IMG/VR virus record: IMGVR_UViG_3300012956_000012 | Span: 1-64,000 of that record | From: a virus | Taxonomy: Duplodnaviria > Caudoviricetes | Length of the DNA stretch: 64,000 bases | Strand: one strand, 5' to 3' | Notes under the pieces: model-generated | The model's database searches: none | The model's input: only the letters and a program-made list of their open reading frames with translations | What the model was told of the DNA's origin: nothing | In this document: piece by piece, positions 31,323-63,060 of the stretch | Layout: each line of letters starts with the position of its first letter | Position numbering within the stretch: the first letter of the stretch is position 1 | Translations under genes and position numbers: made by a program

Positions 31323-34300
31323 TTAGTCTTCCTTTTTCTCTTCACCTAAATTAAACAAGGTGTTGTCGTTAAAGTGGCGGAAAGAATCCACTTGCTCTTG
31401 AAGATCCATTAATTGATTAGCTCTTTTTGCCGGTGTTGCTTTTGCTAGTTGTTCCCAGAATCCTACTTTAGGGTTTTCTGTTGTAGCTATATCGTAGAGT
31501 TTGAACGGGTTCAACTTTTCATAAGTAGATAATGCTGGGAAAGGGGATTTTACACCATCAATTACAGAACCAGGTATACCAAATGCTGTAGATGATGCAA
31601 ACTCTGAAATAGTTCTTAAATAGATCAATTGCGACATATTTTCAAATACAGTATCATCATCATCATCAGCTGCAAATATCAATTCACCTAAAGCTAATGC
31701 TGCAGCTAGTATTATAACCTCTGTTAAGTTCCTTTTCATGTTTGCCTCTGCAAAACCTCCTTGCTCCATTGACCATCTCCATACAGCTCTTGGATTTAAA
31801 GCTTTTAGCTTTAACTCGTTAATAGCTCTACCAAATGTCCTGTAGTGTCCTTCTTCCATTGTACCAGTAGCTACATTGAAGTGTTGCTTTTTAAACTTCT
31901 TTGTGAGATTAATTAACAACCATCCTCTGTGCATTAGTAATGGGTTAAATATGATATCTCTCTGTGCCGCAACTTGGTCAATATTACTTAGTACGCCATC
32001 AGCATTCTGGATCACTTGTCTTGCTTTTGCTGAAGCTCTTTCAACAATACGATCGAACTCCGCTTGTGAACTACCTGCAAAAAGTTCTTTAAATTTACTA
32101 TTGTAAGTAACTTTGTCCGCCGTTATATTTAGATAATCGTAGAACGAGTTCTTTTCTAGTTTATTCCAAGCAGCTTCTATTTCACTTTTAGTTATAGAAG
32201 GGCTGTTTATTTTACTATGCTTAACAAACTCTGTATAAGATCTAAAAGATCCATCGGTATTTAATCTGTAGTCAGTAAGAATTGCAAGTATAATTTTTGG
32301 ACCTACAGGTTGGTTGGCTGCTTTTGATCCTAAGAAAGGTAATTTGTTTATTACTCGTGCACCTCTTCCAAATGAAGACTCTTTAACTCGTCCTTCAACA
32401 TCTTCTATACCAAAAAACTCTACTATCTGATTTAATTCACTTGTCTTATTTACTTTACCCATTTCAGCTAGATACTTAGCAGAATGTTTTCTAAGTAAAC
32501 TGTTTGATCTATTAGCAGAGGATTTATGATAATAATCTCCAGCAAATCTATCTACAACGTTAGATATTATACCAGTGGTTGCAGATGTCAAGTCTACAAA
32601 TGGGTTGAATGCTAGATTAGAGAATCTAGCCCACGCTTGTGCTCCCATACCTAACTTAGTTAAATCCACCTGCTTGCCAAATATCTCAACTTCAAAATGT
32701 CTTGACTGTTGTATACCATACAACTGGTAGTCTAAATATTCTTTAATTTTTAAATAGTAATTTGAAACCGATCCTTCTTTTAGAATACGGTTGCGTCTTT
32801 GAAAACCTCCATTACTGATAAATTGCTGGTTAGCTACCTTGTACTCCAAAGCTTTTAAAGTTCTTTCTGCTTTTCCTCTTTCTGTGTATAATACAGACTG
32901 TTTTAAATCAATCAATGCTGCTGCAACAGTGTTATCGGTTAACATCGAAGGATCTTCTACTTTACTTTGGAAGTATTTAGGTATAATCTTAGCATCAATA
33001 GTGGAACCAATCTTATTCAAATCTTGATTATCAATTAGCTCGCCATACGCTTTTTCATCTTTTCTGTTTTGGAACAAGTCTTTAACACTATCTTTAAACT
33101 TAGAAACATCTTTCCAGTTAGAGGCTCTAGCAAATTTTTCAAATTTTGATGCTGTCATTTGAACAGCTAAAAATTCGCTTTGATTTCCTGTGTCTCCATG
33201 GTTTTCAATTACTTGCTTCTTAGCCTCTACAAGCAATGTCAGTAATCGATATTCTTCTTGATTTTGAGATGGAGACATTTGAGTCAAATCCATAGTTGGA
33301 TTTTTCAACCAAGTTTCCATGTCAATGCCATACCTTTTGAAGAAATCTTTGTTTATGTACTTCGATACATTAGGTTTTTCATAGTATCCTCCAGGCATAA
33401 ACAAAGGGTTGTTTAAATCCTCACCAGAAGTATCTTCCACCCAAGTGTAGTCTGGAACTATTTCCATATACTCTAAAGCTGGATATGCTTTCTGAAGCTC
33501 TGCTTTTTTGTTTTTATCAAGTACCTCAGAAACCTTTAATGATCCGTTTTTGAAGGCTTCCATAACTTGTTCGTAACCATTTGGCTCGTAACGTTGGAAG
33601 TAACTAGCTACATTTCTCTTAGCAAATTCCGTTTTTAATACCTCTACTTTTGTAGCAGTATCCATTGTATCATTAATCTTACCCTCTGCTTTCATATCAG
33701 AAATAAACCTTTCGTGAGAAAGTTTTACATAAGACGATTTATTAGATACGATATCTCTTACCTTGGAAGCAAAACTAAGTACCTTACCCTTATTCGCTTC
33801 AGTCATGTGACTTAGAGCGAAGTCGTATTCAGATAGCGGAGAATCTTTAGCTAATTTAATAAAATCTTCGTTTACTTGCTTTCTTGTAGTAGATACTCCA
33901 ACTTCTTTGAAGAACGATTGAGGTACATCTAATTCAGCATTTAAAACTGAAATACGGGAATCAATTTCTCGAAGTTTATCCTGAATTGGTCCGGGCATAT
34001 TTATCACATCAGTCTCTAAAGGGTTACCTATCTTTCTATTTTGACGTAGAATAGCCTTCTTCGATCTCTGTAAGCTTTTATACTCGTCTAAGACATCTTG
34101 TTTTCTATCTCTGTTATTTGTATCTGGAAGAGAGTTTATGTATTCTTGAGCTACTACGTCAAATGATTGGTAGGAACCAATATTGCTGTAGTAAGAGTCA
34201 TTAAGGGTGATTGTAGCATTAGATGATATCCAATCAAAGGCTCCTCCTGACTCTTCTTGTAGACGTACTTCTTCTTTGAAAGCATCATTAGGATCACTAG

Positions 34301-37079
34301 TTTTACTCTTTTCTTTCAATTCTTTTCTATAAAGCATAGAGAGGTTAAAAGAGTCTAGTGCAACTCTGGATTCCTCTGGTAGGTCTTCAATATTGTATCC
34401 ATTCTCCAAGACAACTAAGTCTCCAGGAAAAGTAAACTCACTATCAATGTAGAATAGTTTATCCTGCTCTTCTTGTGTTAGCTGTGACAATTTAACTTGT
34501 CTAAGTCCTTCCTTTATATTACCAAATTGATCTACAACAGATAATGCTGCAGCTTTTGATCGCTTAGCTGCTGCTAACATTATTTTATCACCTTCTGAAA
34601 GCTTACTTTTGTCTATAGTTCCATTTTTATTTAACGCTCCCGCTTGCTTTAAAATGTCATAAACATTTGAGTTTGCGTTAGAAATGTACTCTTGTGTTGC
34701 TAGACTTACTCCAGCTGTAGTAAATCGCTCTTTTCTTTTTTCGTAATATTCTGGTTTGAATCGAAGTTCGCTATTATTCTCTTTCCACACCTTCATTTCC
34801 TTATTGTATTCGGAAATTAACTTTTCATCTTTTAGAACTTGAGCTGGTGTGAATTTTTCTAATAATTGCTTTACTTGTAAAGTGTCTTTACTAGTTAATT
34901 GAGTTACTATCTCAACTTGTCTGTTAAATTTATCGTTATCGTACCCATCCTGATCAATAGGAGACCAGTAGTAGAATGTTCCTTTTCCGTTCTTCTCTTG
35001 TCTTACTGTTTTTTGGTACTTATCTAGGCCTTGACTATAAATTTCTTCTAAAAAAGGGTCCGAGAATTTTTTAAAGGTGGAGTTTACTCTCTGCCCCATG
35101 TCACTTACTACTCTGGCAATCATTTGCACAACAGGGTTTTGCATTTGAGACATAAGCCCAAGCGCACTTCCTAAAACAGTTGTATCTCTGATGTTTCCTT
35201 CAATCTGAGACTTTACAGTTTCGATCTCCTTGTCAGTCATGTTAGATGTATCGAACTGTCTCTCAAATTCTTTCTGAACAGTATTTTCAAAATCCTGATT
35301 CATCCTAGGTTGGATATAAGATTTTGACTTTTCAATACTATCTATGGTTTCAACAAGTGAGTCAATTAAAGGTTTATTAGTACTTGTTTTAGCCAATTTA
35401 ACTAACCTGAGCTTCATATCATTTAACCCAGGAAGGATATTGTTTGTAAGGGTATCGTACCTCTTAGCATCCATTGTACTGATAGGTTCATTGTTTGCCT
35501 CAATCTTATCTAGGTTTGCAGCTAGCACCTTATACTGGCTATCAGCAATACTGGCAATAGTATTCACAGAACTTAGGATGGAGATTTCATCCATATTTTC
35601 TGAAATACGTTCTAACTCTGATTTATTTGGTACCTGTTGTTTTAAAACTCTTCGGTACATATCTTGTATCTGACTTGCTACAACTCTTAAGTTACTCTCG
35701 ATAGTTTTTGCATCGTTAGGCATTGCATTGTAGTAGAAGTTTGCCGAGGAAGTTTCCTTGTTAAACTTGGCCATATTCGCCCCCATAACAGCTTCTGCAA
35801 TTTGAGAGTTCAATCTGTCTAAAGATTTTCTATGGTGTGGTTTAAGAGCATCAGTAATTGTTGTCTTGAAATAGTTGAATATCTCAAGCAACTTATCAAT
35901 TAGTGATAATCTCTCTTCAGATTGATTAGCTGTATCAAAATTGGTTTTAAATTCTTTTGCTAATATCTTACCTAAGACTTCTTTTCTTACTTGATCTTCT
36001 AATTCTAAACCTTCATAGAATGGTGCGTACTTCTCTTTATAGTATGCAGCGTACTGACCATATTCTGGGGTCATGTGCACAGTAGCTAGGGCGCCGGAGA
36101 TAGAGTTCTGATCATTGTAAAACTCAATAGCTATGTGAGCTACCTCTTCAGATAGATCTTCAATAGTTACTTTACCTTCAGCAAAGGCTACCACACGGTT
36201 AACCATGTCAGATATAGCTTGGATATCCGGATCCTTACCGTATTTTGTATTGTAATTTTTTCTGTATTCTTCCAGTGTTGTAGGTGTAAATCCAAGAGTA
36301 GTTAAGAAGCTATTCAAACTTCTTAAAATGCTTTTTGCCTTTTGAGTTGTTTCAGAAAATGATGCTTCTTGAGTTACATCGTACTTCTTGTTTGCCGTTA
36401 AATAGCGGACCACTAAATCTACTTGGTTTTTATAAGTGTTGTCATTTAACTTGCTTGGAATATCTTGGATCAAAAATACATCTTGTTCCTTTTCTTTTTC
36501 AGCTACAACTAAGTCTGATTGGAACTCAACTTCTAAAGTCCCGTCTTTATTCACAGTAGTATACACTCCGAGATCTACTAAAGCATTTGCCCTTACCATC
36601 TGAGCAGTTACTTTCTTCGTTTCAGTGAAAGACCCCTTACCTTGAAATCTAGTAACACCATCTTCACCTAAAACTCTATCAGCAGACAATACTCCCTCTC
36701 GAACTCCATCTGTCAAGAAAGTAACTCTTTCACTAGAAGCTGTGTCAAACTTTGCGATAGGTGTGAATTCTCCATCAGTAGTTTTAAATCCCATAGCAGC
36801 TTGGCCATCAAGATCTGAAATTATTAAAGACTCTAGTGTTTCAAATTCCTTACCGCCTGGTGCTTTGTAGAACAACTTTGGTTCCCCTGTTTCATATTTT
36901 TGAAGGTCTTGTTTCTCAAACTTATCTGAGTATGCATTTGCCATTAATCTTAATGATGTGTCTGCATCACCTAAATAGATATTACTATGGATAGCCTTAA
37001 ACAACTCTGAAGGTTTACCCTCTGGAGTTGTTACTTTTACTACATTACCTTCTGCGTTTCTTTGTATTAAACAGTTCAT
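31323..37079 (-). CDS. giant virion (putative ejection) protein with a degenerate zincin-like motif
   Basis: 1918 aa; SEEVAHIA...EVLGK; hydrophobic helix plus poly-D near the C-terminus; structural-arm context. Confidence 0.7.
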   Translation of the reverse strand: MNCLIQRNAEGNVVKVTTPEGKPSELFKAIHSNIYLGDADTSLRLMANAYSDKFEKQDLQKYETGEPKLFYKAPGGKEFETLESLIISDLDGQAAMGFKTTDGEFTPIAKFDTASSERVTFLTDGVREGVLSADRVLGEDGVTRFQGKGSFTETKKVTAQMVRANALVDLGVYTTVNKDGTLEVEFQSDLVVAEKEKEQDVFLIQDIPSKLNDNTYKNQVDLVVRYLTANKKYDVTQEASFSETTQKAKSILRSLNSFLTTLGFTPTTLEEYRKNYNTKYGKDPDIQAISDMVNRVVAFAEGKVTIEDLSEEVAHIAIEFYNDQNSISGALATVHMTPEYGQYAAYYKEKYAPFYEGLELEDQVRKEVLGKILAKEFKTNFDTANQSEERLSLIDKLLEIFNYFKTTITDALKPHHRKSLDRLNSQIAEAVMGANMAKFNKETSSANFYYNAMPNDAKTIESNLRVVASQIQDMYRRVLKQQVPNKSELERISENMDEISILSSVNTIASIADSQYKVLAANLDKIEANNEPISTMDAKRYDTLTNNILPGLNDMKLRLVKLAKTSTNKPLIDSLVETIDSIEKSKSYIQPRMNQDFENTVQKEFERQFDTSNMTDKEIETVKSQIEGNIRDTTVLGSALGLMSQMQNPVVQMIARVVSDMGQRVNSTFKKFSDPFLEEIYSQGLDKYQKTVRQEKNGKGTFYYWSPIDQDGYDNDKFNRQVEIVTQLTSKDTLQVKQLLEKFTPAQVLKDEKLISEYNKEMKVWKENNSELRFKPEYYEKRKERFTTAGVSLATQEYISNANSNVYDILKQAGALNKNGTIDKSKLSEGDKIMLAAAKRSKAAALSVVDQFGNIKEGLRQVKLSQLTQEEQDKLFYIDSEFTFPGDLVVLENGYNIEDLPEESRVALDSFNLSMLYRKELKEKSKTSDPNDAFKEEVRLQEESGGAFDWISSNATITLNDSYYSNIGSYQSFDVVAQEYINSLPDTNNRDRKQDVLDEYKSLQRSKKAILRQNRKIGNPLETDVINMPGPIQDKLREIDSRISVLNAELDVPQSFFKEVGVSTTRKQVNEDFIKLAKDSPLSEYDFALSHMTEANKGKVLSFASKVRDIVSNKSSYVKLSHERFISDMKAEGKINDTMDTATKVEVLKTEFAKRNVASYFQRYEPNGYEQVMEAFKNGSLKVSEVLDKNKKAELQKAYPALEYMEIVPDYTWVEDTSGEDLNNPLFMPGGYYEKPNVSKYINKDFFKRYGIDMETWLKNPTMDLTQMSPSQNQEEYRLLTLLVEAKKQVIENHGDTGNQSEFLAVQMTASKFEKFARASNWKDVSKFKDSVKDLFQNRKDEKAYGELIDNQDLNKIGSTIDAKIIPKYFQSKVEDPSMLTDNTVAAALIDLKQSVLYTERGKAERTLKALEYKVANQQFISNGGFQRRNRILKEGSVSNYYLKIKEYLDYQLYGIQQSRHFEVEIFGKQVDLTKLGMGAQAWARFSNLAFNPFVDLTSATTGIISNVVDRFAGDYYHKSSANRSNSLLRKHSAKYLAEMGKVNKTSELNQIVEFFGIEDVEGRVKESSFGRGARVINKLPFLGSKAANQPVGPKIILAILTDYRLNTDGSFRSYTEFVKHSKINSPSITKSEIEAAWNKLEKNSFYDYLNITADKVTYNSKFKELFAGSSQAEFDRIVERASAKARQVIQNADGVLSNIDQVAAQRDIIFNPLLMHRGWLLINLTKKFKKQHFNVATGTMEEGHYRTFGRAINELKLKALNPRAVWRWSMEQGGFAEANMKRNLTEVIILAAALALGELIFAADDDDDTVFENMSQLIYLRTISEFASSTAFGIPGSVIDGVKSPFPALSTYEKLNPFKLYDIATTENPKVGFWEQLAKATPAKRANQLMDLQEQVDSFRHFNDNTLFNLGEEKKED

Positions 37080-37447
37080 TAAAAGTTCATTAGTTGTTCA
37101 AAAGTTCTTCTGTTTGTGATCCTTACTTTGTCCCCCACCTTAGAGTTGGTTATGTCGATAGCTCCTATTGGATTTCCATCTACTCTTTTGATGCAGTATA
37201 AGAACCATCCAGACTCAGCTATTTTTTCACAATTTACAATTTTGTATTTTGTTTTAAGCATACCTGTCTGAATAATCTCTCCAGGACTAAGCCTTTCTTT
37301 TATGCCAATAAAAGCTCTTTTACCAGGCTTTGTCATTTCGTCAGTTACTGTTGTCCAAGCAACTCTTACTGATGAAAAGAGGGATAGATCGTTCAAAGAC
37401 ATGTCTACTCCCTCTAGTCTAAAATCTCTTGGATCATCCACAGGCAT
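37079..37447 (-). CDS. hypothetical protein
   Basis: 122-aa ORF overlapping both giant neighbours. Confidence 0.6.
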   Translation of the reverse strand: MPVDDPRDFRLEGVDMSLNDLSLFSSVRVAWTTVTDEMTKPGKRAFIGIKERLSPGEIIQTGMLKTKYKIVNCEKIAESGWFLYCIKRVDGNPIGAIDITNSKVGDKVRITNRRTFEQLMNF

Positions 37448-40400
37448 TCATTTTTTCTTGAATATTGTCTTTTTCAGAGTACGAATCTACAAATATTAGA
37501 TTAGAATCCAAAATAGATTGTACATTACTTATTTTTTTGCCGAAGTCATCTCGAAGCATACTTGTCGTAACTCTGTTTAGAATATCTTGAGTTGTAAGTT
37601 GAGAGGCTTGTTCTGAAGTCATTCCTTTAAAGCCAAGTTGATTTGCAATCCAACTTGAAAACTCTTTTATGAAAGCTTTTACTTTTTCAATAAAAGATGT
37701 AGCTTCTTTCTCATTCATACCCATTTCCTTTGTAAAGGACTCTAAGTACTGCTCAGCATTGGCGCCAAGTAGGTTAGCTTCTAACTCCTCTTTCATTCTA
37801 GAGATATAGCCCTCTCTTGATTCACCTTGTCTTGGGTTGTACGCTTCTGAAGTTAAATCAGCTTGTGGTGATATGCCTTGTTGGAATCTCATTCGAAGTC
37901 TGTCTGCCACAGGTACGTCAGTATAAGATTCGATAAGAGACTTAGATTGTTGCTCTTCTGTCATGCCAAATCTTTTAGCCACTGCTCTCGCTGTAACCTC
38001 TCCAGCAACTTTTCTGTAAGTATCTACAAGCCAAAAGCTCTCTTGCATGTCTGAAGATAAAAAGATATTAACTGTGTCTAGTAAATAAATATCCTCTGGA
38101 TCGATTGTTTTTTCTTTAGCTTCTGCTATTTTCGATATTGCGGAAAATTTAGTATCTTCTTCTCCAATTCCTGCAAGCTTAAATCCGGCTTGTAATACGC
38201 CAGAAGGTGAAGATCCCTGTACGTAACCTTCCTCCCTTTGTATATGATGAAGGAATTCATGCGCAAGGTTTGCTCCTGCGTTAGCTCCGTTGATATTTTC
38301 ATATCCTCTATCTTGGGGAGTGTCATATCTTTCTTTTGTAGATTTTTGACCTCTTGCATCCAAGTATATAATGGATTCAGCTCGGTTATATCCATTAACT
38401 CCCGACCTGTTAAATTGTACATTAACATCTCCATACGCTTGTGTAAGTTTCGTATCTTCAACTATTTCAGATAACTTATAATTTTCTCCTAAGTTAACAC
38501 TTTTTACTTTAAATTGCAAATCTGGAATTTCCATTACCCAGTTTCCATCTAGCCTTTCCCATCCAGTTGCCTCTTTTATTTTAAGTGGAGTTATTCTTTG
38601 TACTTCCAATTTTTTAGCTAAGGCTAGGTTGTTCAGCTCTTGCTCAGTTTCTGGTATACTTAAAATACCCTTTTCACCTATAATTTGAAAAGACTCATTT
38701 CTTCTTGATCTACTTATAACTAATTGGTCCTCTAGCGGTATCCCCTCCTGTTCAGCTAAAGCTTCTTTTACTTCGCTTATAGTTACTCCGTCTAGTGTAC
38801 CACCATTGTTCAATTTTAAGTATGCTAATTCAATAGCTCTAGCTTCTACCTCTCCATAGAGCATCTCATAAGCTAACTGTGCTGCAGTGGAGTTACCATT
38901 TAATAGACCATCTACAACTACTTTTGCTGCCTGTAGAACTTTTACGTCTTCAGTCGTTAAATCTTCTTTTAATTTTTCATCTATTTTTTTAATCACTGTC
39001 GGTGATATACTAGCTCTTTCTCCAATCAATTCTGCTGCTCTTCTAACTACTGTGTAAGGGTCGCCTCCAGTTGGAAGTAGCTCTATTTCTTGGATGATGT
39101 GGGCAATCTCGTGAACGTATGATGCGACAATGCTGTCTTCCAGTGTAATTTCATTATAGGTTCTTCCAATTCCTCCAAGGTATATTCCTCTATAGGCTTC
39201 GAGAGCTCTAGCTTCATTGATCCATATTTTCGCTCCATCCTTAAAAGATGCTCTTGCAAATTGCCCTTCATCCAATCCGTACTCATGTTCTACTTTTATA
39301 TTTTTTAGTTCTGGGTAATACTTAAATAAAATGTTGTCTTCTAAAACTTCACCTAATGTGGTTTCTGTACCTACTTGGGGAAATGTATTGTTTTTAAATT
39401 TTAACTGTTTTAATACGTTTGCGTCAAAGTATGTCCATTTTCCTTTGTACTCTGACCAACCTGTTATCACTTCTACTGCTGATTTGTCTGTACCTTCTTC
39501 TAATAATTTTTTAGCTTGTTGTAATTTATTATAAGCTTCTTCATCTCTTTGGGCCCCTTGTTCACCTATAATTTGAAAAGATTCACTTCCAGAGAAGTCT
39601 AAATTATTGCTTTTGCCAAGGAAGTCGTCAAACTTTTTACTGAACACCTCTTCATTAAAACCTTCAGATACTAGTTGGTCCATTTTATCAAGCAATGTTT
39701 TTGCATCGGTATCTCCATTCGCAGCAGCTTTTTTAACTACTGGTTTGTAGAGGTGCCATAGCTCGTGTATTAACGTGTTTGAATTTAATACGTCCTCTGC
39801 CAGATAGATTTGATCTGTTGCTGGATCGTAGAAACCATATACTGTTTCTCCTTTTTTGAAGAATTGTACTCTCTCTTCAATGGTAATTGCATTCCCATCA
39901 AATACTACGTAGTTGAAACCTTGTTTTTCAGCGTTTGCTTCGTCAATAGAGAGTAAGTTGTCTTTATATTTTACACCGTCTATACCTGCCCTTAGTAAGA
40001 ACAAAGAGGCATCCTTATCCGACTCTAATATCTTTTTTATCTTCTTGTACGTAGATGCTCCGTCATTGATTGGTCCGAACTGTGTTCGTCTTGCTTCTTC
40101 TACACTTGTGCCGTCTCCTTCTATGGCTCTCCTAATAAGAGGGCTATAATCATCAAATTTGGATCTTAAGCCCTCTTTGTCAATATTCTCTAATATTTTA
40201 TTCGCATTTTCTTCGCTTAGCTTGGCATCCCACTCTAGCCAAGAATAGTCTCCTGGCTGTTTTCCTTTGTGTAGGGATACTTTGTATAAGTAATTCTTTG
40301 CGTAGTTTTTAGCGATATCCTCTAACTCAGTGAAGTATAACCCCCACCCATAATTCTGCCTACCTTTTCCTGTACCCATAGCCTCCGTTGTAAATGAAGC

Positions 40401-42653
40401 TATATCATAAGGAGACCCATGGTATGCTTCAACCATAGCTTGGATAGAATCATACCCCCTCTTCTGAAGCTCCTCTTGTACCTGTTCTGGTGTAAGGATG
40501 TTTACATTAATACCTAGATTTTTCTCCATGTATTGCGAAATCATTCTTACCTGGTCTCTTCTTTGAGTTGTAGTTGGTTTGAATGGTTCTTTTATAGAGT
40601 CTACTTTTTCCTGTACTTTTTCTGAAGTAGTTGTATCCAGGCCAAAGTTTACCGCGGACATGAAATCTTTAGCTTGTCTTGCATCAAACTTCACGTCCGT
40701 TTTTGAGTTGTAGTAAGTCGTATTGTTTTCTGTGTCTACCTGAACAAAAAGTTGTCTGTTACCCTCTACAATTACTTTTTTGTAAAGCATGTTGTTCAAC
40801 TTTTTATAAGTTCCAGCAGTATTGCTTGTTAAAATAAAAGGTCCTTCTACAAGTATGTCTGCAGTAAATGGTTGAGCCTCCTCTGGAAAATTCTGGAAGA
40901 AAGTGTCTTCGTCTAAAATAGTGCTTGAAGGTTCAGAGAGTAGATAATCCATTCCAGACTCTCTTTTCAATCTGATATAATCCTTCAATTCGGTACTCAT
41001 TTCAATATCGTCAATTGAGTCGATAGTACCTTTAATAGAGATGTCAGAGTCAGTGATCCTGAATTTAGACAAAGTTGTTCTATAAACTTCTGAGTCAGCT
41101 AATTTCTCTCGTAAAATATAGTTGTAGAAATCCTCTACAAATCTTGATTGTAGATAGTCCTTATCCGTAGTAATAGAGTTTAACTGCAACACAGCATCTT
41201 TTTTGGATGCCTTATAAATTGGTTTGTGTTCAAACACTACCTGATTTAAAGATACTTCCTCGTTTGCCTCTACTTGTAATCCTATATTTCTACTATTTAC
41301 AAATACAGCTAGTTCTTTTAATACAGCCTCTTTATTATTGATATCAGAGTTGATCTTAACCGGTGAGTTACCTTTCATCACTTGATCGTAAAGGTACTCA
41401 TACATTTGGTCTACTTGACCTCTTTGTACTTTGTGGTAAAGTTTCTCCCCGACTTTAATCAATCCATGCTCTGAGAAAAGCTCGTTGTCAGTTAAATTTG
41501 TGTCTAAGTTTACAATAGTTAGGTTACTGTAAACATCATCTAACAATTCGTATGTTACTGGACTTTGATCAGACTTCAATACTTTATCCGAAAACTGAGT
41601 TGCAAACTCTTGGATATTCGTATCTGTTGGGTCTTTTACTACCTTTGATAAACCTACTAGTAAATCAATAACACCTTGCTTGTCGTTGGACAAATCAGAT
41701 ATTCCAATTACATCTACATTGATAGAAACAAAATCACTTTCAATTTCTTTTAGTACAGTCTTAATTTGTGGTTGCATAGCTGACCAAATATTATCATCTA
41801 TGGAAACCAAATATTCTAGCTCAGCATCTATTATTGCCGGGTTTATGTTAACGCTTACAGTGTTCTTTAAAGTTGTGTAGTAAGTGTTGTCTCCTGTCGA
41901 TAGCTTGTTTCCTAAAAAGGAAACTACTGGCACCTTTTTCAGGGATTGAATTCTATCTGTAACTTTTTTCCTGAATGCCTGGCTTGAGAAGAAACTTTCT
42001 GAAAATTCTCTGAAAGAAGATTCGTTTACTGCTTCGTCTAGCGTCATTCCTTTTGCTAAATTATCAAATAATTCTTGATCAACTTCTTTTTCCGAAGCTT
42101 TAGTAAAGGAACCAAATATTGTCTTGTTCTCGCTATCCTTGTAGTAAACCTTTCCTGTCTCAGGCTCAACTGTGATATCCTCCTTTGTAAGGTGCGATTC
42201 TATCTTACTGATGATGTTTATTAAAGATTGTGGCTCCAATTCAAAAGCCTCCTCTTGCGAGTATAATCCAGACGCCACAGCTCTAGGTACACTTATCTCA
42301 AAAAAGCCGTCTGGTTTGAATACAGCATTCATTACCCCACTTAGTTTTGATAATGTTTCAATACCATTTCGTTTCATAAACTCTTTAACTTCGAAGGTCT
42401 CTCTTGTAGAAAGCCTTTCCATTACAGGTGTCGTATAAAACTTAAACACATCTGCCAAAGTAGCGTCTGACTGACTTTTTCCAGTTGCAGTTTCAAACTC
42501 TGGTAAGTAAGAAGAAGCCCATAAATTAAGGGCCTCTTCCTGACTTTGTGTATATCTTAGTGCGTCAGCATACAATTTGTTAACTGTTCCGTCTTCGTTT
42601 GTTACAATCTTATCTCCAGATGGAGTGATTGTTATTTTGCATTTTAATCCCAT
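37434..42653 (-). CDS. polyvalent virion protein: ADP-ribosyltransferase-like domain, three HExxH metallopeptidase domains, two LPD23-like domains
   Basis: AYHGSP...YGWGLYFT...GIDGVKY...NYVVFD; IHELWH, VHEIAH, AHEFLH; two ESFQIIGE...TGW...GxW modules; ATG 42653 overlaps the upstream TGA. Confidence 0.78.
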   Translation of the reverse strand: MGLKCKITITPSGDKIVTNEDGTVNKLYADALRYTQSQEEALNLWASSYLPEFETATGKSQSDATLADVFKFYTTPVMERLSTRETFEVKEFMKRNGIETLSKLSGVMNAVFKPDGFFEISVPRAVASGLYSQEEAFELEPQSLINIISKIESHLTKEDITVEPETGKVYYKDSENKTIFGSFTKASEKEVDQELFDNLAKGMTLDEAVNESSFREFSESFFSSQAFRKKVTDRIQSLKKVPVVSFLGNKLSTGDNTYYTTLKNTVSVNINPAIIDAELEYLVSIDDNIWSAMQPQIKTVLKEIESDFVSINVDVIGISDLSNDKQGVIDLLVGLSKVVKDPTDTNIQEFATQFSDKVLKSDQSPVTYELLDDVYSNLTIVNLDTNLTDNELFSEHGLIKVGEKLYHKVQRGQVDQMYEYLYDQVMKGNSPVKINSDINNKEAVLKELAVFVNSRNIGLQVEANEEVSLNQVVFEHKPIYKASKKDAVLQLNSITTDKDYLQSRFVEDFYNYILREKLADSEVYRTTLSKFRITDSDISIKGTIDSIDDIEMSTELKDYIRLKRESGMDYLLSEPSSTILDEDTFFQNFPEEAQPFTADILVEGPFILTSNTAGTYKKLNNMLYKKVIVEGNRQLFVQVDTENNTTYYNSKTDVKFDARQAKDFMSAVNFGLDTTTSEKVQEKVDSIKEPFKPTTTQRRDQVRMISQYMEKNLGINVNILTPEQVQEELQKRGYDSIQAMVEAYHGSPYDIASFTTEAMGTGKGRQNYGWGLYFTELEDIAKNYAKNYLYKVSLHKGKQPGDYSWLEWDAKLSEENANKILENIDKEGLRSKFDDYSPLIRRAIEGDGTSVEEARRTQFGPINDGASTYKKIKKILESDKDASLFLLRAGIDGVKYKDNLLSIDEANAEKQGFNYVVFDGNAITIEERVQFFKKGETVYGFYDPATDQIYLAEDVLNSNTLIHELWHLYKPVVKKAAANGDTDAKTLLDKMDQLVSEGFNEEVFSKKFDDFLGKSNNLDFSGSESFQIIGEQGAQRDEEAYNKLQQAKKLLEEGTDKSAVEVITGWSEYKGKWTYFDANVLKQLKFKNNTFPQVGTETTLGEVLEDNILFKYYPELKNIKVEHEYGLDEGQFARASFKDGAKIWINEARALEAYRGIYLGGIGRTYNEITLEDSIVASYVHEIAHIIQEIELLPTGGDPYTVVRRAAELIGERASISPTVIKKIDEKLKEDLTTEDVKVLQAAKVVVDGLLNGNSTAAQLAYEMLYGEVEARAIELAYLKLNNGGTLDGVTISEVKEALAEQEGIPLEDQLVISRSRRNESFQIIGEKGILSIPETEQELNNLALAKKLEVQRITPLKIKEATGWERLDGNWVMEIPDLQFKVKSVNLGENYKLSEIVEDTKLTQAYGDVNVQFNRSGVNGYNRAESIIYLDARGQKSTKERYDTPQDRGYENINGANAGANLAHEFLHHIQREEGYVQGSSPSGVLQAGFKLAGIGEEDTKFSAISKIAEAKEKTIDPEDIYLLDTVNIFLSSDMQESFWLVDTYRKVAGEVTARAVAKRFGMTEEQQSKSLIESYTDVPVADRLRMRFQQGISPQADLTSEAYNPRQGESREGYISRMKEELEANLLGANAEQYLESFTKEMGMNEKEATSFIEKVKAFIKEFSSWIANQLGFKGMTSEQASQLTTQDILNRVTTSMLRDDFGKKISNVQSILDSNLIFVDSYSEKDNIQEKMNACG
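38673..39581. repeat. 21-bp perfect direct repeat marking the starts of two tandem protein modules
   Basis: ttcacctataatttgaaaaga at 38673-38693 and 39561-39581 (888 bp apart, in frame). Confidence 0.9.
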
Positions 42654-45600
42654 CAACAGTTTTTGTTACGTTCTTCTTCTGCTTTTAGTTCGGCATCTCT
42701 TGCCTCTTGGTACTTAGCCATCATCTCATCCATTTGAGGTTTTGTAAGTGGCTCTGATTTTGCACCAGATACTTCTACCTCTAAGTCTTTCAAATTGAAT
42801 TGAATCTTAGGTGAGTGGAATGGCCTGCTCAAATTGATATCTATTGTTGCCTGTTCTTTTAAGATATCTTTGATGTTTACTTTCCCATCTAACCAACTAT
42901 CAAGGTTGTAAAAGTACGAAATAGAATTCAACTGTGCAAGTTTCTTATTGAAAAACTCAGTATTTAAGTTTGATCCCCCGATGATTACAAAGGAATCTCC
43001 AGGTTTTTTAATGTCAATACCTTTGCTTGCCATATATCTGTTTAGCGCAATTACCTTGTCTGTTTCAGTAGCATTTGACTTAAAAATATCTTTAAATTCT
43101 TGATGGTCTGTTTTTTCAGTTTCATTTACTTTTACTGGGTAAGCTACTCTTTTTTTACCTACTTGTATTACAACAAATGCAACTCTCGATTTATCAGCTC
43201 TATCTATGTATTTCTGTAAGAATGTTGTGTCTAGCCCTTTTACTCCTGATCTAGTCTTATATCCTCCATTCTCAACAAATCCAATATCCTTTACTTTTTT
43301 GACATCTTGATCTGTGAATGATCTACTTTCTATTGCTACGGAATTGTCTTCAGTTTTAACCATATTATAATTAGGGTGTCCTAAAAATATTTTAGTTACT
43401 GTTACCTCTAATCCAGTGTCAATTACCTTCCCAGACAACATGTCGTCAAGTGTACTTGGATCTCCAAAAACTTGATCTCTTAGTGTAGTGAACTTCTCAT
43501 CTTCTTTAGTTCGGCCACCTGCCTTTCTTTTTTGTTTCAAAACTCCACAGAAAGCTCCTTCTTTATTTCTTAACCGGATTACTCCTTCTTTTTGAAGCCT
43601 TTCAATCACTAGGTCTTGTGGTGTTTCTGCTAAAATCCTTTTATTATAAGGATCGTTAGGGTCTACTTCTAAAGACAGTTTCTCTTTTTCTTGAGTGTTG
43701 TATGCTGCATTAACATCCATGTGCTCAGCGAAATCTTGAGCAAAAGGACTTTTTAACGGTTCAGAAGTTGTCTCAGTATGTTTTTCTATGAAACTATAAT
43801 TAGTCGTTAAATTTTTATTGGTAGGAAGTATTGATAAGTTAGTGGCATTATTAATTCTTGTTAGCAATGTAGGGTCTTCCTTATCATTAAGAAGTATATT
43901 GTTTGTTTCTTCTTGAACTTCAAAGGGGATATCCATACCTAACTCATCAATGAAATCTTCTGGTGAAATTCCTGAAATCTCGATAAGCCCCTTTTTATTC
44001 CTAGCAACAGTTACTGAATCATAAATCTGCGCTTTGTCATAATGTACTCTACCAACTTTATCTCCAAAATCAACACCCTCAATAATCTCTTGACTGGTTT
44101 GATTAGCTACAACTTGTACTTCTTCTACATCGATAGATTCTAGCATAGCTTTCTGTCTAAGCAAGTCACTTAGTCTTAATCCTTCTGCTACTGTCCCTGT
44201 TACAAAAAGCCATTGATCAATTTCATCCTCAAGAGTGTCTTTCTCTGCTTGTTCAGCTTCTGATAAACCTTCTTCCTCATCTTTGATCAATAGTTCGTTT
44301 AATCGAACATACTCTGGGGAATCTATAATTTTAAGGTTTTCAACTGCGGTAGTTAGTTCTTTTTCTAACTCTGCAATCCTATCGTCTATTTCTTGGCTTG
44401 ACTGATCGCTATTGCTATCATCTGCTTTTTGCTGCGTGGTTTCCCGTTCGATCCCCTTTCCTTCCCCTTCTTCTTGTTGTCTTTCGACAATTCCCTGAGG
44501 TTGTACTGAATCGCCTGGTTCACGGCCTTCTTGCTCTTGTTTTTGCTTTTCTTCAATGGCATTTTTCTTCGCTTTGAGTTCTTTTATCTTTTCATTGATA
44601 GATGTCACTTTTCTTGAGGTAGCAACATCTCCTCTTAAATATTCTACTTGGTTTAATATCGATGCAATAGCCTTATCAATAGCTTCAACATTATCTAAAT
44701 CTTCTGCCTTTATATTTAAAGACTCTTTTAAACGAACAGTATCTCCTTCCAAAGGATCATTTGACTGTTCCACTTGAGAGTTAAGTTCGATTACTGTTTC
44801 AGTTGCTTCTTTTACTTCTTTGTTTAACTGCTCAACATTTAAAAGCATTCTCAACAAAGTGTCAATTTTATGCTTCTCCCTTTCAGAAAGTTGGTCAGAA
44901 TTTTTTAATTTAGATTCAATCTCCAAATCAATAGCTTCTTGTCCTCGTATACCTGGAACTTTCAAGGCTATGTCCATAAACTTGTTGTTCTCCTTAATAG
45001 CTTTTCTAAGTTCAGATGTCATTTCATAAGGAGTCCCAATAATCATATTCAAGAGTCCCTTACCTTTTTTAGTTGAGAAGAAGTCTGTACTCGCTATGTC
45101 TCTTACTAGGTTAGAAGTTTCTCGGTGGAAGTCAGAATACTTTTTAAATCTTTCTACCATGTCCTCAATGGAGTCTGCATCAAAACTTCTTCCATTTCTT
45201 CTAAGTGCTGCTACGTAATCTTCTAACTTATCTATTTCAGAGATAGCTCCCATTACATCAGGAGTTGTTTGGAAGATACTTTCTGTTGGATTTACAGTGC
45301 TTGTTTTATAATCGGCTCCTAGTGTTTGTTCAATTTGTTCTTTCTCTTTTTCTAGTTGAGTAATTTGTTGTTGAACCAATACTAGTTTCTCTGCTGTCAT
45401 TTGCTGGCGGCGTCTTGCGGTCTCTGGTTTTAAGTTTCGCTTACCTTCTACCTGCACTTGAGATGCTTGCATACCATAAGATACAGCTCGCTCTCTTAGA
45501 TCGTTTAATCTTTTTTCCTTATTCTTTAAATCACTTAGTAATGTTTTTTGACTTGCTTTTAGAGAGTTGACAAACTCCATGTGATCGAAAAGTCCTGTAG

Positions 45601-47644
45601 ATCCTACCATGGTTTCAATCTCTGATGCCAATTTTCTAGCATTGCTTAAAGCACTTTGACCAGTGTGTAAACTCGTTATTAAAGCGTCTTCAACTTCAAT
45701 AGTATTACCAATAGGCATTTTTAGATTTCTTCCTACATTTAAAGCCTCTACAGTTGCCTTAGCTTTTTGGTAGTTTTCTAAATTTCTAGAGAACTGTTCT
45801 TTTAGATTTGATTTATATGCGTTAACATTATCCCCTAATAAATCCAGAGCTGCAGCATCAAGCTGCATGTGATCTATAATAGCATTATAATCTTCCTTAA
45901 TTTGTCCACTTGTTTTTAGATGAGATTGGCTTTTGATGAACTCGACATCCATCATCGAATCATTAATAGAAGTGTCAGATCCATTTTCAATACCTTGTTC
46001 TATCTGATTTCTAAACGCTCTGACAGAAGAGGCTCTATTCATGTTTCGAAGTGTATTAACTCCTCTGTTGACTTCCTCCACTTTAGATTGCAAAGAAGCT
46101 TGGGCTGCTTTTCTAGAGTTTTTACCAATAAACCCTAAACCTCTCTCCTGAACGGATCCAACTCCCCAACCAATTAACATACCAATACCCATTTCCTTCC
46201 AGCCCTCTTTGGTTCCATATTGTTCGGACAACGCTTGAGTAAAGCTTGAAAAGAGTGATAGTGAGGAGTCATTGTTTGGATCGTATTTTGCATTAAGGTA
46301 ATTCTGCATAGTCTTTCCTGCTACACCTTGCATACCTTCTTCATAGATACCCTCTACTGAAGCCTTGCCTAAAGTCTTGTAAATGTTTCCAGTAAATCTT
46401 TGAGCTCTTGATGCTTCTTTTACAGCCAATGTTCCTATCTCGTCTCCTGACTCTAATCCTAGCCCAATTACTTTATTCAACCTGTTTGTGGTAGACTTTG
46501 TAATGTTTTGCATTGAACTTGCAAAAGGATTTTTAACATTAAAAGCCTTTCCAAACATAGCTGCATTGGATACAGAGAGGATTGCCATATTAGCAGCAAA
46601 CACTCCATTTGCAGCTCCAGTAGCTTCTTGTAAGAACTTAGAGTATTCCTCATCAGTTGGCTGCCTACCATTCTTTTCCTCGAACGATTCTAAATATGTT
46701 GATACAGCGTCTTTAAAGTTATGCCTAGCTTCCATTCCAGCTTCAAATCCGGATGTTCTTGCTAAGAATAATCCGGTGTCAACAGCAGAGCCTGCAGTAG
46801 TTAAATAACGAGCTTTATTCAGTGATTTTATTAAATCAACACTTCCTTCGAATTTTTCTAAATCTTTTGCTTTGTCTAAAATTTTACCTGTACTTACAAC
46901 TGTCTTAGGTGCTCCAAAGAAAGTTTTACCTTTTGACATGTAATTAGTAGGGTCAAGAATCTCCTCTGCTCCTTCTTTTGCAGCTGTTTTTAAAAAAGAC
47001 TTGGCACCAGCTTTAAAGCTTAATTTAGCTGCTGATCCTGCAAATGTTGCTCCACCAGTTAAAAATCCTAAACCTATCTCTGGAAGTAATGCACCTCCAA
47101 CGAAAGCTAGAGCTCCTGCAGCGTCATTGGCCCAAAAGTTAGCTGTACCTAAAGATGATAAAAACCCTTTAGACTTCTGTTCATCTGAATAGTAGTTTGG
47201 AAGCTTGTAGTCTAATTGTTTATTCCAATCATCTAACTTATTTGAGAAGTCATTGTTCCAGTAACCCTCCCATGATCCTTCTTTAATTGCATTGATTGCA
47301 CCATATACAGTTCCTACTGTTGCATCAAGTACGTAGTTTCCAGTTTTTCTAGCGTTTTTTAACAGACCATTAGTCCACTGATCTAAAGCTGATTGTTGCT
47401 TAGCTAATCGATCTTCATTGCCTACAGCTCCTAAGTAGTTTTCGAATTTTGCAACATAAGTTCCATCAGATAGCCTATCGTATATAGCACTAGTTGGTAC
47501 ATCATACTCAACCGGTTTCAACTCATTTTTCGTAGTTGAAAACTTAATTGGGCCTTTAAAAGAATCTAAAGGATTTGCGTTAGGGTTTTTCACTTCCTGT
47601 CCAGATACTCTGGCAAGAATTGAATCAAAACTTTCTAATGACAT
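42653..47644 (-). CDS. giant virion (putative ejection/channel) protein
   Basis: 1663 aa; Gly/Ala-rich hydrophobic N-terminal segments, EGIYEEGMQ motif, long coiled coils. Confidence 0.7.
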   Translation of the reverse strand: MSLESFDSILARVSGQEVKNPNANPLDSFKGPIKFSTTKNELKPVEYDVPTSAIYDRLSDGTYVAKFENYLGAVGNEDRLAKQQSALDQWTNGLLKNARKTGNYVLDATVGTVYGAINAIKEGSWEGYWNNDFSNKLDDWNKQLDYKLPNYYSDEQKSKGFLSSLGTANFWANDAAGALAFVGGALLPEIGLGFLTGGATFAGSAAKLSFKAGAKSFLKTAAKEGAEEILDPTNYMSKGKTFFGAPKTVVSTGKILDKAKDLEKFEGSVDLIKSLNKARYLTTAGSAVDTGLFLARTSGFEAGMEARHNFKDAVSTYLESFEEKNGRQPTDEEYSKFLQEATGAANGVFAANMAILSVSNAAMFGKAFNVKNPFASSMQNITKSTTNRLNKVIGLGLESGDEIGTLAVKEASRAQRFTGNIYKTLGKASVEGIYEEGMQGVAGKTMQNYLNAKYDPNNDSSLSLFSSFTQALSEQYGTKEGWKEMGIGMLIGWGVGSVQERGLGFIGKNSRKAAQASLQSKVEEVNRGVNTLRNMNRASSVRAFRNQIEQGIENGSDTSINDSMMDVEFIKSQSHLKTSGQIKEDYNAIIDHMQLDAAALDLLGDNVNAYKSNLKEQFSRNLENYQKAKATVEALNVGRNLKMPIGNTIEVEDALITSLHTGQSALSNARKLASEIETMVGSTGLFDHMEFVNSLKASQKTLLSDLKNKEKRLNDLRERAVSYGMQASQVQVEGKRNLKPETARRRQQMTAEKLVLVQQQITQLEKEKEQIEQTLGADYKTSTVNPTESIFQTTPDVMGAISEIDKLEDYVAALRRNGRSFDADSIEDMVERFKKYSDFHRETSNLVRDIASTDFFSTKKGKGLLNMIIGTPYEMTSELRKAIKENNKFMDIALKVPGIRGQEAIDLEIESKLKNSDQLSEREKHKIDTLLRMLLNVEQLNKEVKEATETVIELNSQVEQSNDPLEGDTVRLKESLNIKAEDLDNVEAIDKAIASILNQVEYLRGDVATSRKVTSINEKIKELKAKKNAIEEKQKQEQEGREPGDSVQPQGIVERQQEEGEGKGIERETTQQKADDSNSDQSSQEIDDRIAELEKELTTAVENLKIIDSPEYVRLNELLIKDEEEGLSEAEQAEKDTLEDEIDQWLFVTGTVAEGLRLSDLLRQKAMLESIDVEEVQVVANQTSQEIIEGVDFGDKVGRVHYDKAQIYDSVTVARNKKGLIEISGISPEDFIDELGMDIPFEVQEETNNILLNDKEDPTLLTRINNATNLSILPTNKNLTTNYSFIEKHTETTSEPLKSPFAQDFAEHMDVNAAYNTQEKEKLSLEVDPNDPYNKRILAETPQDLVIERLQKEGVIRLRNKEGAFCGVLKQKRKAGGRTKEDEKFTTLRDQVFGDPSTLDDMLSGKVIDTGLEVTVTKIFLGHPNYNMVKTEDNSVAIESRSFTDQDVKKVKDIGFVENGGYKTRSGVKGLDTTFLQKYIDRADKSRVAFVVIQVGKKRVAYPVKVNETEKTDHQEFKDIFKSNATETDKVIALNRYMASKGIDIKKPGDSFVIIGGSNLNTEFFNKKLAQLNSISYFYNLDSWLDGKVNIKDILKEQATIDINLSRPFHSPKIQFNLKDLEVEVSGAKSEPLTKPQMDEMMAKYQEARDAELKAEEERNKNC

Positions 47645-55304: not shown

Positions 55305-56189
55305 TTATTGTTGACCAGTAGTGAAAAGACTATCAAGTTGTGGCAACTCATTTTGAACAGGTATCTCTGTCATGTATGAACTGTAAGCTTCTTCATCAGA
55401 CATTGTTTGAACATCCTCTTGAGGTTTAGCTACAACAGGTGTTGACATAGCTAGTGCATACTGTTCCAAGTATTGTTGCTTAGCTGTTTTTACTTCCTCT
55501 ATTTCAGACCTTGCTTGTGATGTTTCTCCTTTGCTTTCTTTGATAGCTTCTTTTTCTATATCGTATGTGAAGTTTGTGTATGTAGGGTTAAAATCTCCAG
55601 ACTCTATCGAAAATTTTGCTATGAAATCTTCGTTGGGATTTTCTACATCCTCAACAGTATCTTGACTTGGAGTGTAGTTTGACGGCTTAGCTGAAAAACT
55701 AGACCCCATCATACTTAAAACAGAACCAATTTTTTTATCGTAGTCAGGAGCTGTTGCATAGCCTTGACCTCTCCCTTTTTCCGGATTATACTGCCAGATG
55801 CTGTACAATGCTTCTGATACATTACTTGCATTTTGGTATTTTGATCCCCATTTTTTAACTCTGTCTTGTAATGCTGTATCTAAGTTGTTGTAAGACTTGA
55901 ACTTAGATTTTGTTGTGTAGTAAGAGTTGTTTGAAGCTTCCTTTGTAGTTGCTACATTACCAGCCTCATTTTTCCCAGCCTTTTGTCCAAAGTAGTTATA
56001 AGTTGCTGGCACATGTTTGAACCAGCCTGTTTCCAAGGCTGCTTGTGCTACGGTTAATTCTGGGAATTTATCTCCCGCTTTAGCTGCTGCTATATAGACA
56101 GATTTTGCAATGTTCCATTGAGTATCGGAAACCCCCTTCGGTTTAGAAAGGGGGATATCTGTTGTTGGTTGTAAATCTTTAGCTCTCAT
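55305..56189 (-). CDS. GH73/FlgJ-like glucosaminidase (virion-associated peptidoglycan hydrolase)
   Basis: VAQAALETGW (catalytic Glu), NYFGQK, GYATAPDY; acidic low-complexity tail. Confidence 0.85.
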   Translation of the reverse strand: MRAKDLQPTTDIPLSKPKGVSDTQWNIAKSVYIAAAKAGDKFPELTVAQAALETGWFKHVPATYNYFGQKAGKNEAGNVATTKEASNNSYYTTKSKFKSYNNLDTALQDRVKKWGSKYQNASNVSEALYSIWQYNPEKGRGQGYATAPDYDKKIGSVLSMMGSSFSAKPSNYTPSQDTVEDVENPNEDFIAKFSIESGDFNPTYTNFTYDIEKEAIKESKGETSQARSEIEEVKTAKQQYLEQYALAMSTPVVAKPQEDVQTMSDEEAYSSYMTEIPVQNELPQLDSLFTTGQQ

Positions 56190-62212: not shown

Positions 62213-63060
62213 GGTACGATTATTTGATATTGTAAGCTTTCTAATCTATTTAGAGCTTTTACTTTATAAATGGAGCTAGGTGATAACATCTTCAACTCAT
62301 TTGAAGCATTGTCTCTAGCAGAAACCTCTTCTTGTTTGTAAACTGTGTATAAGGATGCTAATCCTGCCATAGCATCACTATTTGCAAGTAAATCTTCTGC
62401 ACACCTCCTTAATAGGTGGTACTCTAGATATGTTTCTAACTCTCCGTTGAATGTTTCTGGAATGTCTGGTTGACCATCCTCATCTGTAGGTAAGCCATAG
62501 TATTGAAGATAAATGTGGCCACTATTGAAGTTGGCTTGAATTTTACTGCCTATTATTGATATCTCATTAGGATTATCTTTTACGACTCTATTCCTACACC
62601 TTAGATGCATCTTAGATTTTTCAAAAGACCTCCCTAATTTAAGAAGTGTTGGGTTCTTGTATACGAATTGTGCTGACCCTCCATTAAAATACAGATTCTC
62701 TCTGATCACATTCTCTGTCTTACTTTGGCAGCAGGATTCACATTCATTCCAAGTTGAAGACTCTATGACTCTTTCTTTGTAAAAATAAGATGTTTGAAGT
62801 GCATCTATTTCCCCAGTATAGGTATAGGCATGTGGTTCACACAGTATAGCCATGTAGAGGCTAATAAAATTATCTGGTAGATATCCTATTCCGTCTACAA
62901 TTTCTACGGTGCCTTCTGTCATCGTTCCAATAGAGTTGCCAAATCTTTTTAAGGCTTTTAAAGCATCTCTCCTCATAGATATTTCATCTAGTAAACCTGC
63001 TTCATCATACTTTTTAAGTTTTGATTTTACCTCTAAAATCAACTCGTCTAATCTGCTCAT
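62203..63060 (-). CDS. tail ring / tubular protein (crAss-like)
   Basis: IQANFNSGHIYLQYYGLPTDEDGQPDIP motif; directly upstream of the muzzle gene. Confidence 0.7.
   Translation of the reverse strand: MSRLDELILEVKSKLKKYDEAGLLDEISMRRDALKALKRFGNSIGTMTEGTVEIVDGIGYLPDNFISLYMAILCEPHAYTYTGEIDALQTSYFYKERVIESSTWNECESCCQSKTENVIRENLYFNGGSAQFVYKNPTLLKLGRSFEKSKMHLRCRNRVVKDNPNEISIIGSKIQANFNSGHIYLQYYGLPTDEDGQPDIPETFNGELETYLEYHLLRRCAEDLLANSDAMAGLASLYTVYKQEEVSARDNASNELKMLSPSSIYKVKALNRLESLQYQIIVPWH

Follow-up and report, generated by a model that had tools for sequence, protein, structure and literature searches.

Terminal cysteines in three giant, cysteine-poor, probable cargo proteins of a crAss-like phage and a possible end-to-end tether

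Why would three giant phage proteins that are almost free of cysteine keep this residue at exactly those chain ends that face each other in gene order? The question is raised by three neighbouring genes in a 64,000-nucleotide stretch of viral DNA, hereafter the window (positions 1 to 64,000 of the IMG/VR record IMGVR_UViG_3300012956_000012; Duplodnaviria, Caudoviricetes). The minus-strand block 31323-64000 of the window constitutes the module for tail and cargo in a distant member of the crAss-like phages, and the source record measures 105,974 bp and is ~70% complete. The three proteins, called A, B and C in order of transcription (Table 1), are probably cysteine-suppressed cargo proteins that are ejected from the virion. 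Their terminal cysteines are conserved across upwards of 250 homologues in a survey of some 17 genomes, which points to an end-to-end tether, probably a disulfide.

In the window, A contains C1366 and C1663, the latter being its last residue (codon 42656-42658). B contains C5 (codon 42639-42641) and the penultimate C1738 (codon 37440-37442), and C has C3 alone (codon 37071-37073) and no C-terminal cysteine. The 1031-, 699-, 702- and 294-amino-acid proteins encoded upstream (2726 residues together) contain none, and the muzzle-like 2007-residue and the ring-like 285-residue proteins contain 34 and 6, respectively. These computed positions agree throughout with the counts of an earlier note made from the sequence alone, as does its statement that four of the five cysteines lie near termini and pair in gene order: C1663 of A with C5 of B, and C1738 of B with C3 of C. 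At the background content of 1.54% cysteine in the other open reading frames of the window, ~82 cysteines would be expected in the 5320 residues of A, B and C, where 5 were observed (Poisson P ~1e-28), and ~42 in the four upstream proteins, where none was observed (P ~7e-19). If five cysteines are placed at random, the chance that at least four fall within 6 residues of any terminus is ~1e-8. Across the whole record, a very low cysteine content and terminal cysteines are combined solely in A, B and C.

Conservation in homologues, on which the earlier note had staked its proposal beforehand, was found overwhelmingly in all three protein types. A cysteine lies 0-6 residues from the C-terminal end in 108 of 109 homologues of A and is the last residue in 57; exactly one cysteine is present in 105 of the 109, and none has a cysteine within its first 10 residues. 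In total, these homologues comprise 200,695 residues with 112 cysteines, of which 108 are terminal. The internal C1366 of A is not conserved. The sole homologue of A without a terminal cysteine (P0126, 1351 residues) is ~300 residues below its shortest close relative, and its end is 377 bases away from that of the contig; as a probable truncation, it is uninformative. For B, 24 homologues (P0001-P0020 and P0022-P0025 out of 37) of 1039-3021 residues, with identities down to 26%, all carry Cys5 and a cysteine 0-2 residues from the C-terminal end, and nearly all of them have no further cysteine. C5 and C1738 are invariant in the 25-sequence alignment of B types. Homologues of C were searched with residues 200-1918 as query, so that the N-terminus could not bias the matches; a cysteine at residue 3-5 was found in 25 of 25, and a C-terminal one in 0 of 25.

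A and C have orthologues among the virion proteins of cultured phages. A is similar to gp038 of the Cellulophaga phage phi4:1 (37% identity over 479 residues, E value 2e-71) and, through its N-terminal 450-490 residues, to crAss001 gp47 (E value 4e-23) and phi14:2 gp67 (E value 2e-13; all BLASTP). C matches phi4:1 gp035 over its full length (E value 2e-77), crAss001 gp49 (6e-20) and phi14:2 gp65 (9e-7), and in tblastn it matches genes annotated as 'putative RNA-polymerase subunit' in many Crassvirales. The homologues of A and C in crAss001 are virion proteins by mass spectrometry (PMC10172136), and those in phi4:1 and phi14:2 are annotated likewise.

An N-terminal sequence pattern that the earlier note had seen in both B and C proved to be a real homologous domain of ~100 residues. 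With a profile built from the first 100 residues of B- and C-type proteins, the domain was detected in the source record in B and C only, and elsewhere in 613 representatives (50%-identity clusters) at an E value of at most 1e-3. Among the best 150 carriers, the domain begins at residue 1 in 149 and has a cysteine at residue 3-6 in all 150; this cysteine is the sole invariant column of the alignments. At least 500 residues were present in 116 of these 150 carriers. Of the 116, 86 have a C-terminal cysteine as well (604-3072 residues) and 30 have not, most of the latter being ~1900-1960 residues long, that is, of the C type. Together, the 116 proteins contain 219 cysteines in 160,325 residues, just 17 of them internal. 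The AlphaFold2 model of the domain of C (predicted local distance difference test, pLDDT, 90; predicted template modelling score 0.79) shows a predicted beta-hairpin immediately after Cys3, followed by helices. In VIA-align, the model matched residues 2-95 of phi14:2 gp66 (6vr4_A) with Z 8.0 (81 residues aligned at a root-mean-square deviation of 2.8 A); the second-ranked chain reached Z 2.3. Foldseek ranked 6vr4_A first but weakly (E value 0.59) and gave no match at an E value of at most 0.001 for the domain. The C-terminal cysteines sit on poorly conserved tails, which are mostly acidic or lysine-rich; in B types, Asp or Asn often stands two residues before the cysteine. Neither the N-terminal domain nor the C-terminal cysteine tag has an entry in Pfam. 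Complex prediction with residues 1-130 of C and 1650-1739 of B gave an interface score (ipSAE) of 0.01-0.02, and the pLDDT of the partner was under 50.

Gene neighbourhoods were surveyed in the window, nine metagenomic contigs and seven deposited phages, with Intestiviridae (p-crAssphage) outside the sample. Wherever all members lay inside the stretch retrieved, the first protein has a C-terminal cysteine only, middle proteins have one at both ends and the last protein has an N-terminal one only. Chains of two proteins occur in contigs L019 and L020 and in cr118_1 and cr6_1, and some two-protein chains end in a polyvalent protein. Three-protein chains are found in the window, in L001, L002, L004 and L005, and in crAss001, cr128_1, phi14:2, phi4:1 and csAssE-Sib; L006 and L007 have four proteins, two of them middle proteins. 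L018 obeys the rule in its first and middle proteins; its last protein lies outside the retrieved stretch. The numbers of N-type and C-type cysteine ends were equal in every genome checked. For example, crAss001 gp47 has a single cysteine at position -2, gp50 has Cys5 and a cysteine at -8, and gp49 has Cys5 only. In phi14:2, the single cysteine of gp67 is its last residue, gp66 has Cys3 and a penultimate cysteine, and gp65 has Cys3 only; in phi4:1, the sole cysteine of gp038 is the last residue, gp037 has Cys4 and a penultimate cysteine, and gp035 has Cys3 only. The gene for gp47 lies on the opposite strand from those for gp50 and gp49, and several genes separate the chain members in L005 and csAssE-Sib. 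Therefore, the rule tracks protein type and not gene adjacency. Together with the separated members in L020, the same arrangements rule out an artefact of a polyprotein, read-through or frameshift.

In some crAss-like phages the three proteins are one polyprotein (bioRxiv 10.1101/2020.03.07.982082). Fusions of the first two proteins in Suoliviridae (4946 residues in cr118_1; gp36 of 4400 residues in cr6_1) contain the modules of the window in equal order, with a peptide bond where the window has a cysteine pair, and have more internal cysteines than the window proteins. In cr118_1, where A and B are fused, the portion similar to gp47 ends at residue ~1784 and the one similar to gp66 resumes at residue ~1871, equivalent to gp66 residue 113. 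The junction in between has no cysteine and no detectable N-terminal domain, and the first cysteine of the protein is at 2041. Where the junction is joined by a peptide bond, the cysteine pair and the docking domain are thus gone. At the outer end of the Suoliviridae fusions, the C-terminal cysteine of the fusion and the N-terminal cysteine of the next protein are kept; in cr118_1 these are a cysteine at -3 and, in the following protein, Cys3 with the N-terminal domain.

Further observations were made in the surveyed loci. The giant genes of cr6_1 (L012) have in-frame stops under table 11, 57 in gp36 and 29 in gp37, which suggests stop-codon reassignment; these stops were read as Q for the BLAST comparison. 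TAG is the candidate codon read as an amino acid in cr6_1, a difference from the window. In csAssE-Sib (L013:30436-36838), the C-type protein is annotated as two overlapping open reading frames of 281 (N-terminal domain, Cys5) and 1885 residues, an arrangement that could result from a frameshift, an intervening element or an error in sequencing. A 265-residue DUF723 protein with 8 cysteines is encoded between the A-type and the last protein of L020 (L020:16339-17136). Its first residues, MASNCRITRD, resemble the beginning of the N-terminal cysteine domain; the gene may encode a mobile endonuclease and have arisen when the 5' end of the target was copied or split. The crAss001-like phage cr128_1 (L014:7059-7304) encodes an 81-residue thioredoxin-like protein with a WCGPC motif. 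This protein may simply serve nucleotide metabolism; it deserves attention given the redox-controlled tether proposed here.

On balance, and with modest confidence, we infer that a disulfide tether from C-terminal to N-terminal end makes one cargo thread of the three proteins, which would be ejected in order and released by reduction. The bonds would form between the C-terminal cysteine of A and Cys5 of B, and between the penultimate cysteine of B and Cys3 of C. Because assembly takes place in the reducing cytoplasm, the tail of one protein would there dock non-covalently on the N-terminal domain of the next, and after release from the cell the two thiols would oxidise to a disulfide. The three proteins would form one nearly linear thread of ~5300 residues; since the cross-links would lie 0-8 residues from the chain ends, the product would topologically be almost a single polypeptide. 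Potentially, the thread is packed at a fixed 1:1:1 ratio and passes the portal and the tail unfolded, as one chain; its direction could be N-to-C, as was proposed for crAss001 gp45 (PMC10172136). The lack of other cysteines would prevent wrong cross-links, and in the host cytoplasm the links would be reduced and the proteins would separate. Published findings fit this reading: virions of crAss001 contain disulfides, between tail hub and ring proteins, and their authors hold that packing and mutual interactions must set the order of extrusion (PMC10172136); the polyprotein of some phages, mentioned above, fits as well. Conservation and the linear logic of the loci support in part what the earlier note had put forward; its disulfide, ordered ejection and reductive release remain proposals.

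Several points weigh against this tether. Oxidation is not guaranteed, given the reducing cytoplasm in which the particles assemble and the anoxic guts that many such phages inhabit. The argument for the bond itself is indirect and runs from the cysteine pattern, its conservation, the chain logic and its loss in fusion. The cysteine alone is invariant, and the interface between tail and N-terminal domain is hypothetical. Some chain members have internal cysteines (8 in cr6_1 gp36, 1 in crAss001 gp50), and the C-side cysteine of gp50 is 8 residues away from the end. Recombinant gp66 alone is an active polymerase (bioRxiv 10.1101/2020.03.07.982082) and a few residues at both of its termini are unresolved in the crystal structure (6VR4); hence, the cysteines are not needed for catalysis. 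Finally, counting alone is compatible with other pairings, such as a closed loop of B plus a link between A and C.

Such pairings belong to the alternatives that have to be weighed. The terminal cysteines could join the proteins in another topology or with other partners, as the B loop with an A-C link, as A-A and C-C dimers, or with portal or inner capsid proteins. The equal numbers of N-type and C-type ends fit the loop as well, the cysteine-rich tail proteins are possible partners, and the crAss001 tail does have inter-protein disulfides (PMC10172136). However, pairing of ends of the same type leaves the balance of N- and C-type ends in chains of two, three and four proteins unexplained, and also the loss of the cysteines and the N-terminal domain at the A+B fusion junction. 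A closed B loop would have to cross the channel as a doubled chain, and proteins attached to an immobile component of the virion would be harder to eject. We therefore regard another topology or partner as rather unlikely. Quite unlikely, in our view, are metal-based roles, in which the cysteines jointly bind a metal ion or cluster, so that the termini are bridged non-covalently, or act as a cysteine switch that keeps a zincin protease domain latent. Thiolates are good metal ligands, HExxH occurs three times in B of the window, with one occurrence invariant across 25 homologues, and phi14:2 gp65 has a zincin-like domain (bioRxiv 10.1101/2020.03.07.982082). Yet neither the N-terminal domain alignments nor the C-terminal tails contain a second conserved metal ligand near either cysteine, the tails share nothing else, and two, four or six terminal cysteines per chain misfit one fixed metal site. 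HExxH is absent in many B-type proteins, namely gp66, gp50, phi4:1 gp037 and the short middle proteins of L006 and L007, and a cysteine switch on a zincin was rejected as a general explanation because many middle proteins lack this motif.

A role other than linking, as nucleophile of self-processing, as redox sensor for unfolding or activation after entry, or as site of covalent modification, is given a similarly small probability. It would suit a cysteine that is the only invariant residue of a domain with a predicted fold, and it was proposed that gp66 becomes active when its N-terminal part refolds or is cleaved (bioRxiv 10.1101/2020.03.07.982082). Nevertheless, it leaves unexplained the complementary C-terminal cysteine on unrelated, poorly conserved tails, the logic of first, middle and last proteins, and the loss of both cysteines at the fusion junction; no known processing domain was matched in Pfam or in the fold search. 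A split intein or Hint domain was rejected, since a cysteine 3-6 residues from the N-terminal end leaves too little for a C-intein and no Hint match was found in Pfam. Likewise rejected was a lipoprotein cysteine, for which a signal peptide or lipobox ahead of the cysteine is missing. That the pattern serves no function and merely arose by chance, by shared ancestry or under the constraint of overlapping stop and start codons, has next to no probability and is, from the alignments of A types, N-terminal domain carriers and C types, already effectively refuted. The stop codon of A and the start codon of B do share one base (TGATG). However, the cysteines are found at distances of 0-8 residues from the end and within varied surrounding sequence, are retained where the genes are non-adjacent or on opposite strands, and are invariant amid freely diverging flanks in proteins that otherwise purge cysteine; the probability of chance in the window alone was given above.

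The middle position of the chain is the variable one. In Pfam, residues 1039-1075 of B match LPD23 (33.7 bits, cut-off 27), and residues 743-803 match ART-PolyVal weakly (24 bits, cut-off 31.2); homologues of B bear PF18760 and PF18838. The HExxH motifs are at residues 963, 1181 and 1465, the first being the invariant one. B thus looks like a multi-effector protein of the polyvalent type with several putative zincin-like modules. No match of B to phi14:2 gp66 or crAss001 gp50 was found by BLAST, and the catalytic motif D[FYW]DxD was absent from A, B, C and any frame open over at least 200 residues in the record, which is ~70% complete. Judged from its sequence, the middle protein of the window is not the RNA polymerase. 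As for the absent DFDxD, the lineage may have no virion polymerase, its gene may lie in the missing ~30%, or another motif may be used. The middle protein is interchangeable, yet both end tags are kept: phi14:2 and crAss001 have an RNA polymerase there, the window an ART/LPD23 polyvalent protein and phi4:1 a 517-residue protein. Hydrophobic segments were seen in the outer chain members. In A, a Gly/Ala-rich one lies at residues ~175-197; the surrounding stretch (~165-215) is kept in phi4:1 gp038 and may be a membrane-inserting segment of the first chain protein. The segment in C lies at residues ~1784-1806.

Table 1. Features of the tail and cargo block in the window.
Feature	Position	Strand	Basis
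Protein A, first chain member, 1663 amino acids	42653..47644	-	BLAST matches, cysteine positions
Protein B, middle chain member, 1739 amino acids from ATG at 42653	37434..42653	-	homologues, Pfam
Protein C, last chain member, 1918 amino acids	31323..37079	-	BLAST matches, cysteine positions
N-terminal cysteine domain of B, ~100 amino acids	42354..42653	-	alignments; profile match in own record, E value 5e-30
N-terminal cysteine domain of C, ~110 amino acids	36750..37079	-	AlphaFold2 model, VIA-align; profile match in own record, E value 2e-25
Small open reading frame between B and C, overlapping both, 122 amino acids	37079..37447	-	2 internal cysteines
Cysteine-free protein directly upstream of A, 1031 amino acids	47644..50739	-	weak match to phi4:1 gp039
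Cysteine-free proteins of 699 and 702 amino acids	51029..55236	-	PHROG 36695 'virion structural protein'
Cysteine-free peptidoglycan hydrolase with glucosaminidase domain, 294 amino acids	55305..56189	-	Pfam PF01832, E value 1.4e-14
Cysteine-rich tail proteins: muzzle-like structural (2007 amino acids) and ring-like (285 amino acids)	56189..63060	-	PHROG, Pfam

The block is transcribed in the order ring-like protein, muzzle-like protein, glucosaminidase, 702-, 699- and 1031-residue proteins, A, B and C (Table 1). The cargo genes thus follow the muzzle and ring tail genes and the cysteine-free cargo genes, as in blocks of the gp47/gp50/gp49 type. The structural families PHROG 37948 (E value 0) and PHROG 34036 were matched among the muzzle-like and ring-like proteins, and CrAss_Ring_1 (PF24228) scored just below the cut-off for the ring-like one (E value 7e-6). 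Every related locus has a cysteine-free protein of ~950-1040 residues at the place of the 1031-residue protein, and phi4:1 gp039 is annotated as a structural protein confirmed by mass spectrometry. The 699- and 702-residue proteins are likely further cargo or ejection proteins. The small open reading frame between B and C had no match in Pfam or PHROG; frames of 126-135 residues occur at the equivalent place in L001, L002, L004 and L005, the one in L001 sharing the start MPVDD. It might help to assemble either C or the junction of B with C. A megablast search of deposited phage records with the region gave no match, and no close relative is among them. No relatives of B were found among the viral contigs searched, and phmmer searches of the PDB sequences with A, B and C returned nothing meaningful.

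How does this block relate to known systems? The blocks gp47/gp50/gp49 of crAss001 and gp67/gp66/gp65 of phi14:2 resemble that of the window in the homology of A and C, the fold of the N-terminal domain, the terminal cysteine rule and gene position. In phi14:2, however, the middle protein gp66 is the virion RNA polymerase (PDB 6VR4), in place of which the window has a protein with LPD23, weak ART-PolyVal and HExxH modules. The closest cultured relatives are gp038, gp037 and gp035 of phi4:1 (Lightbulbvirus, 146 kb), which follow the cysteine rule alike; phi4:1 differs in that its middle protein of 517 residues is barely related to B, and it stands outside the Crassvirales classification. With polyvalent proteins of phages and conjugative elements, B shares LPD23 above and ART-PolyVal below the cut-off, and the zincin-like HExxH motifs. 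To our knowledge, the N-terminal cysteine domain and the C-terminal cysteine tag are absent from published descriptions of polyvalent proteins. Immunoglobulins M and A polymerise via a penultimate cysteine of the tailpiece, so that an inter-chain disulfide in a flexible tail sets the oligomer. This is an analogy of mechanism only; sequence and setting are unrelated, and oxidation is catalysed there in the endoplasmic reticulum. In the ejection proteins of N4-like phages (N4 gp50-52, DEV gp71-73), cysteine is strongly suppressed, which was ascribed to passage through the periplasm (PMC11445570). Like the window proteins, they are giant, carried in the virion, ejected and cysteine-suppressed; unlike these, they have essentially no cysteine, and no conserved terminal cysteines were reported for them (PMC11445570). 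No homology of the cargo proteins of the window to these ejection proteins was found. A literature search, including the papers on crAss001 and phi14:2, returned no description of terminal cysteines in the proteins discussed here. Suppression of cysteine itself was already known; new is the retention of exactly those cysteines that face each other at the chain ends. The window adds a lineage close to the Cellulophaga phage phi4:1 with a tagged middle cargo other than a polymerase, and the analysis further adds the profile census of the N-terminal domain, the unbiased test of C types, the structural match to 6VR4 and two-protein chains that end in a polyvalent protein.

It is tempting to speculate further, although we lean slightly to doubt here, that the N-terminal domain and the C-terminal cysteine tail are modular plug-and-socket tags, by which interchangeable effectors are spliced post-translationally into a covalent thread (up to ~8000 residues in four-protein loci) with a membrane-active first and a fixed last protein. 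Such a thread would be loaded, counted and injected in a set order, and freed by reduction in the host cytoplasm. The effectors might, just as tentatively, be RNA polymerases, ADP-ribosyltransferases and proteases. Among the phages of the human gut, crassviruses are the most abundant. How several megadaltons of cargo are packed and ejected in order and proportion through a narrow tail is a question that was raised for crAss001 (PMC10172136). If the tether proposed here is true, it would be a simple physical and conserved answer to both order and proportion of the cargo, which would be one thread, as in the phages with fused genes. It would also explain why quite different effectors fit the middle position, and the N-terminal cysteine domain, with its 613 representative proteins, would be a sequence tag that marks injected proteins in metagenomes.

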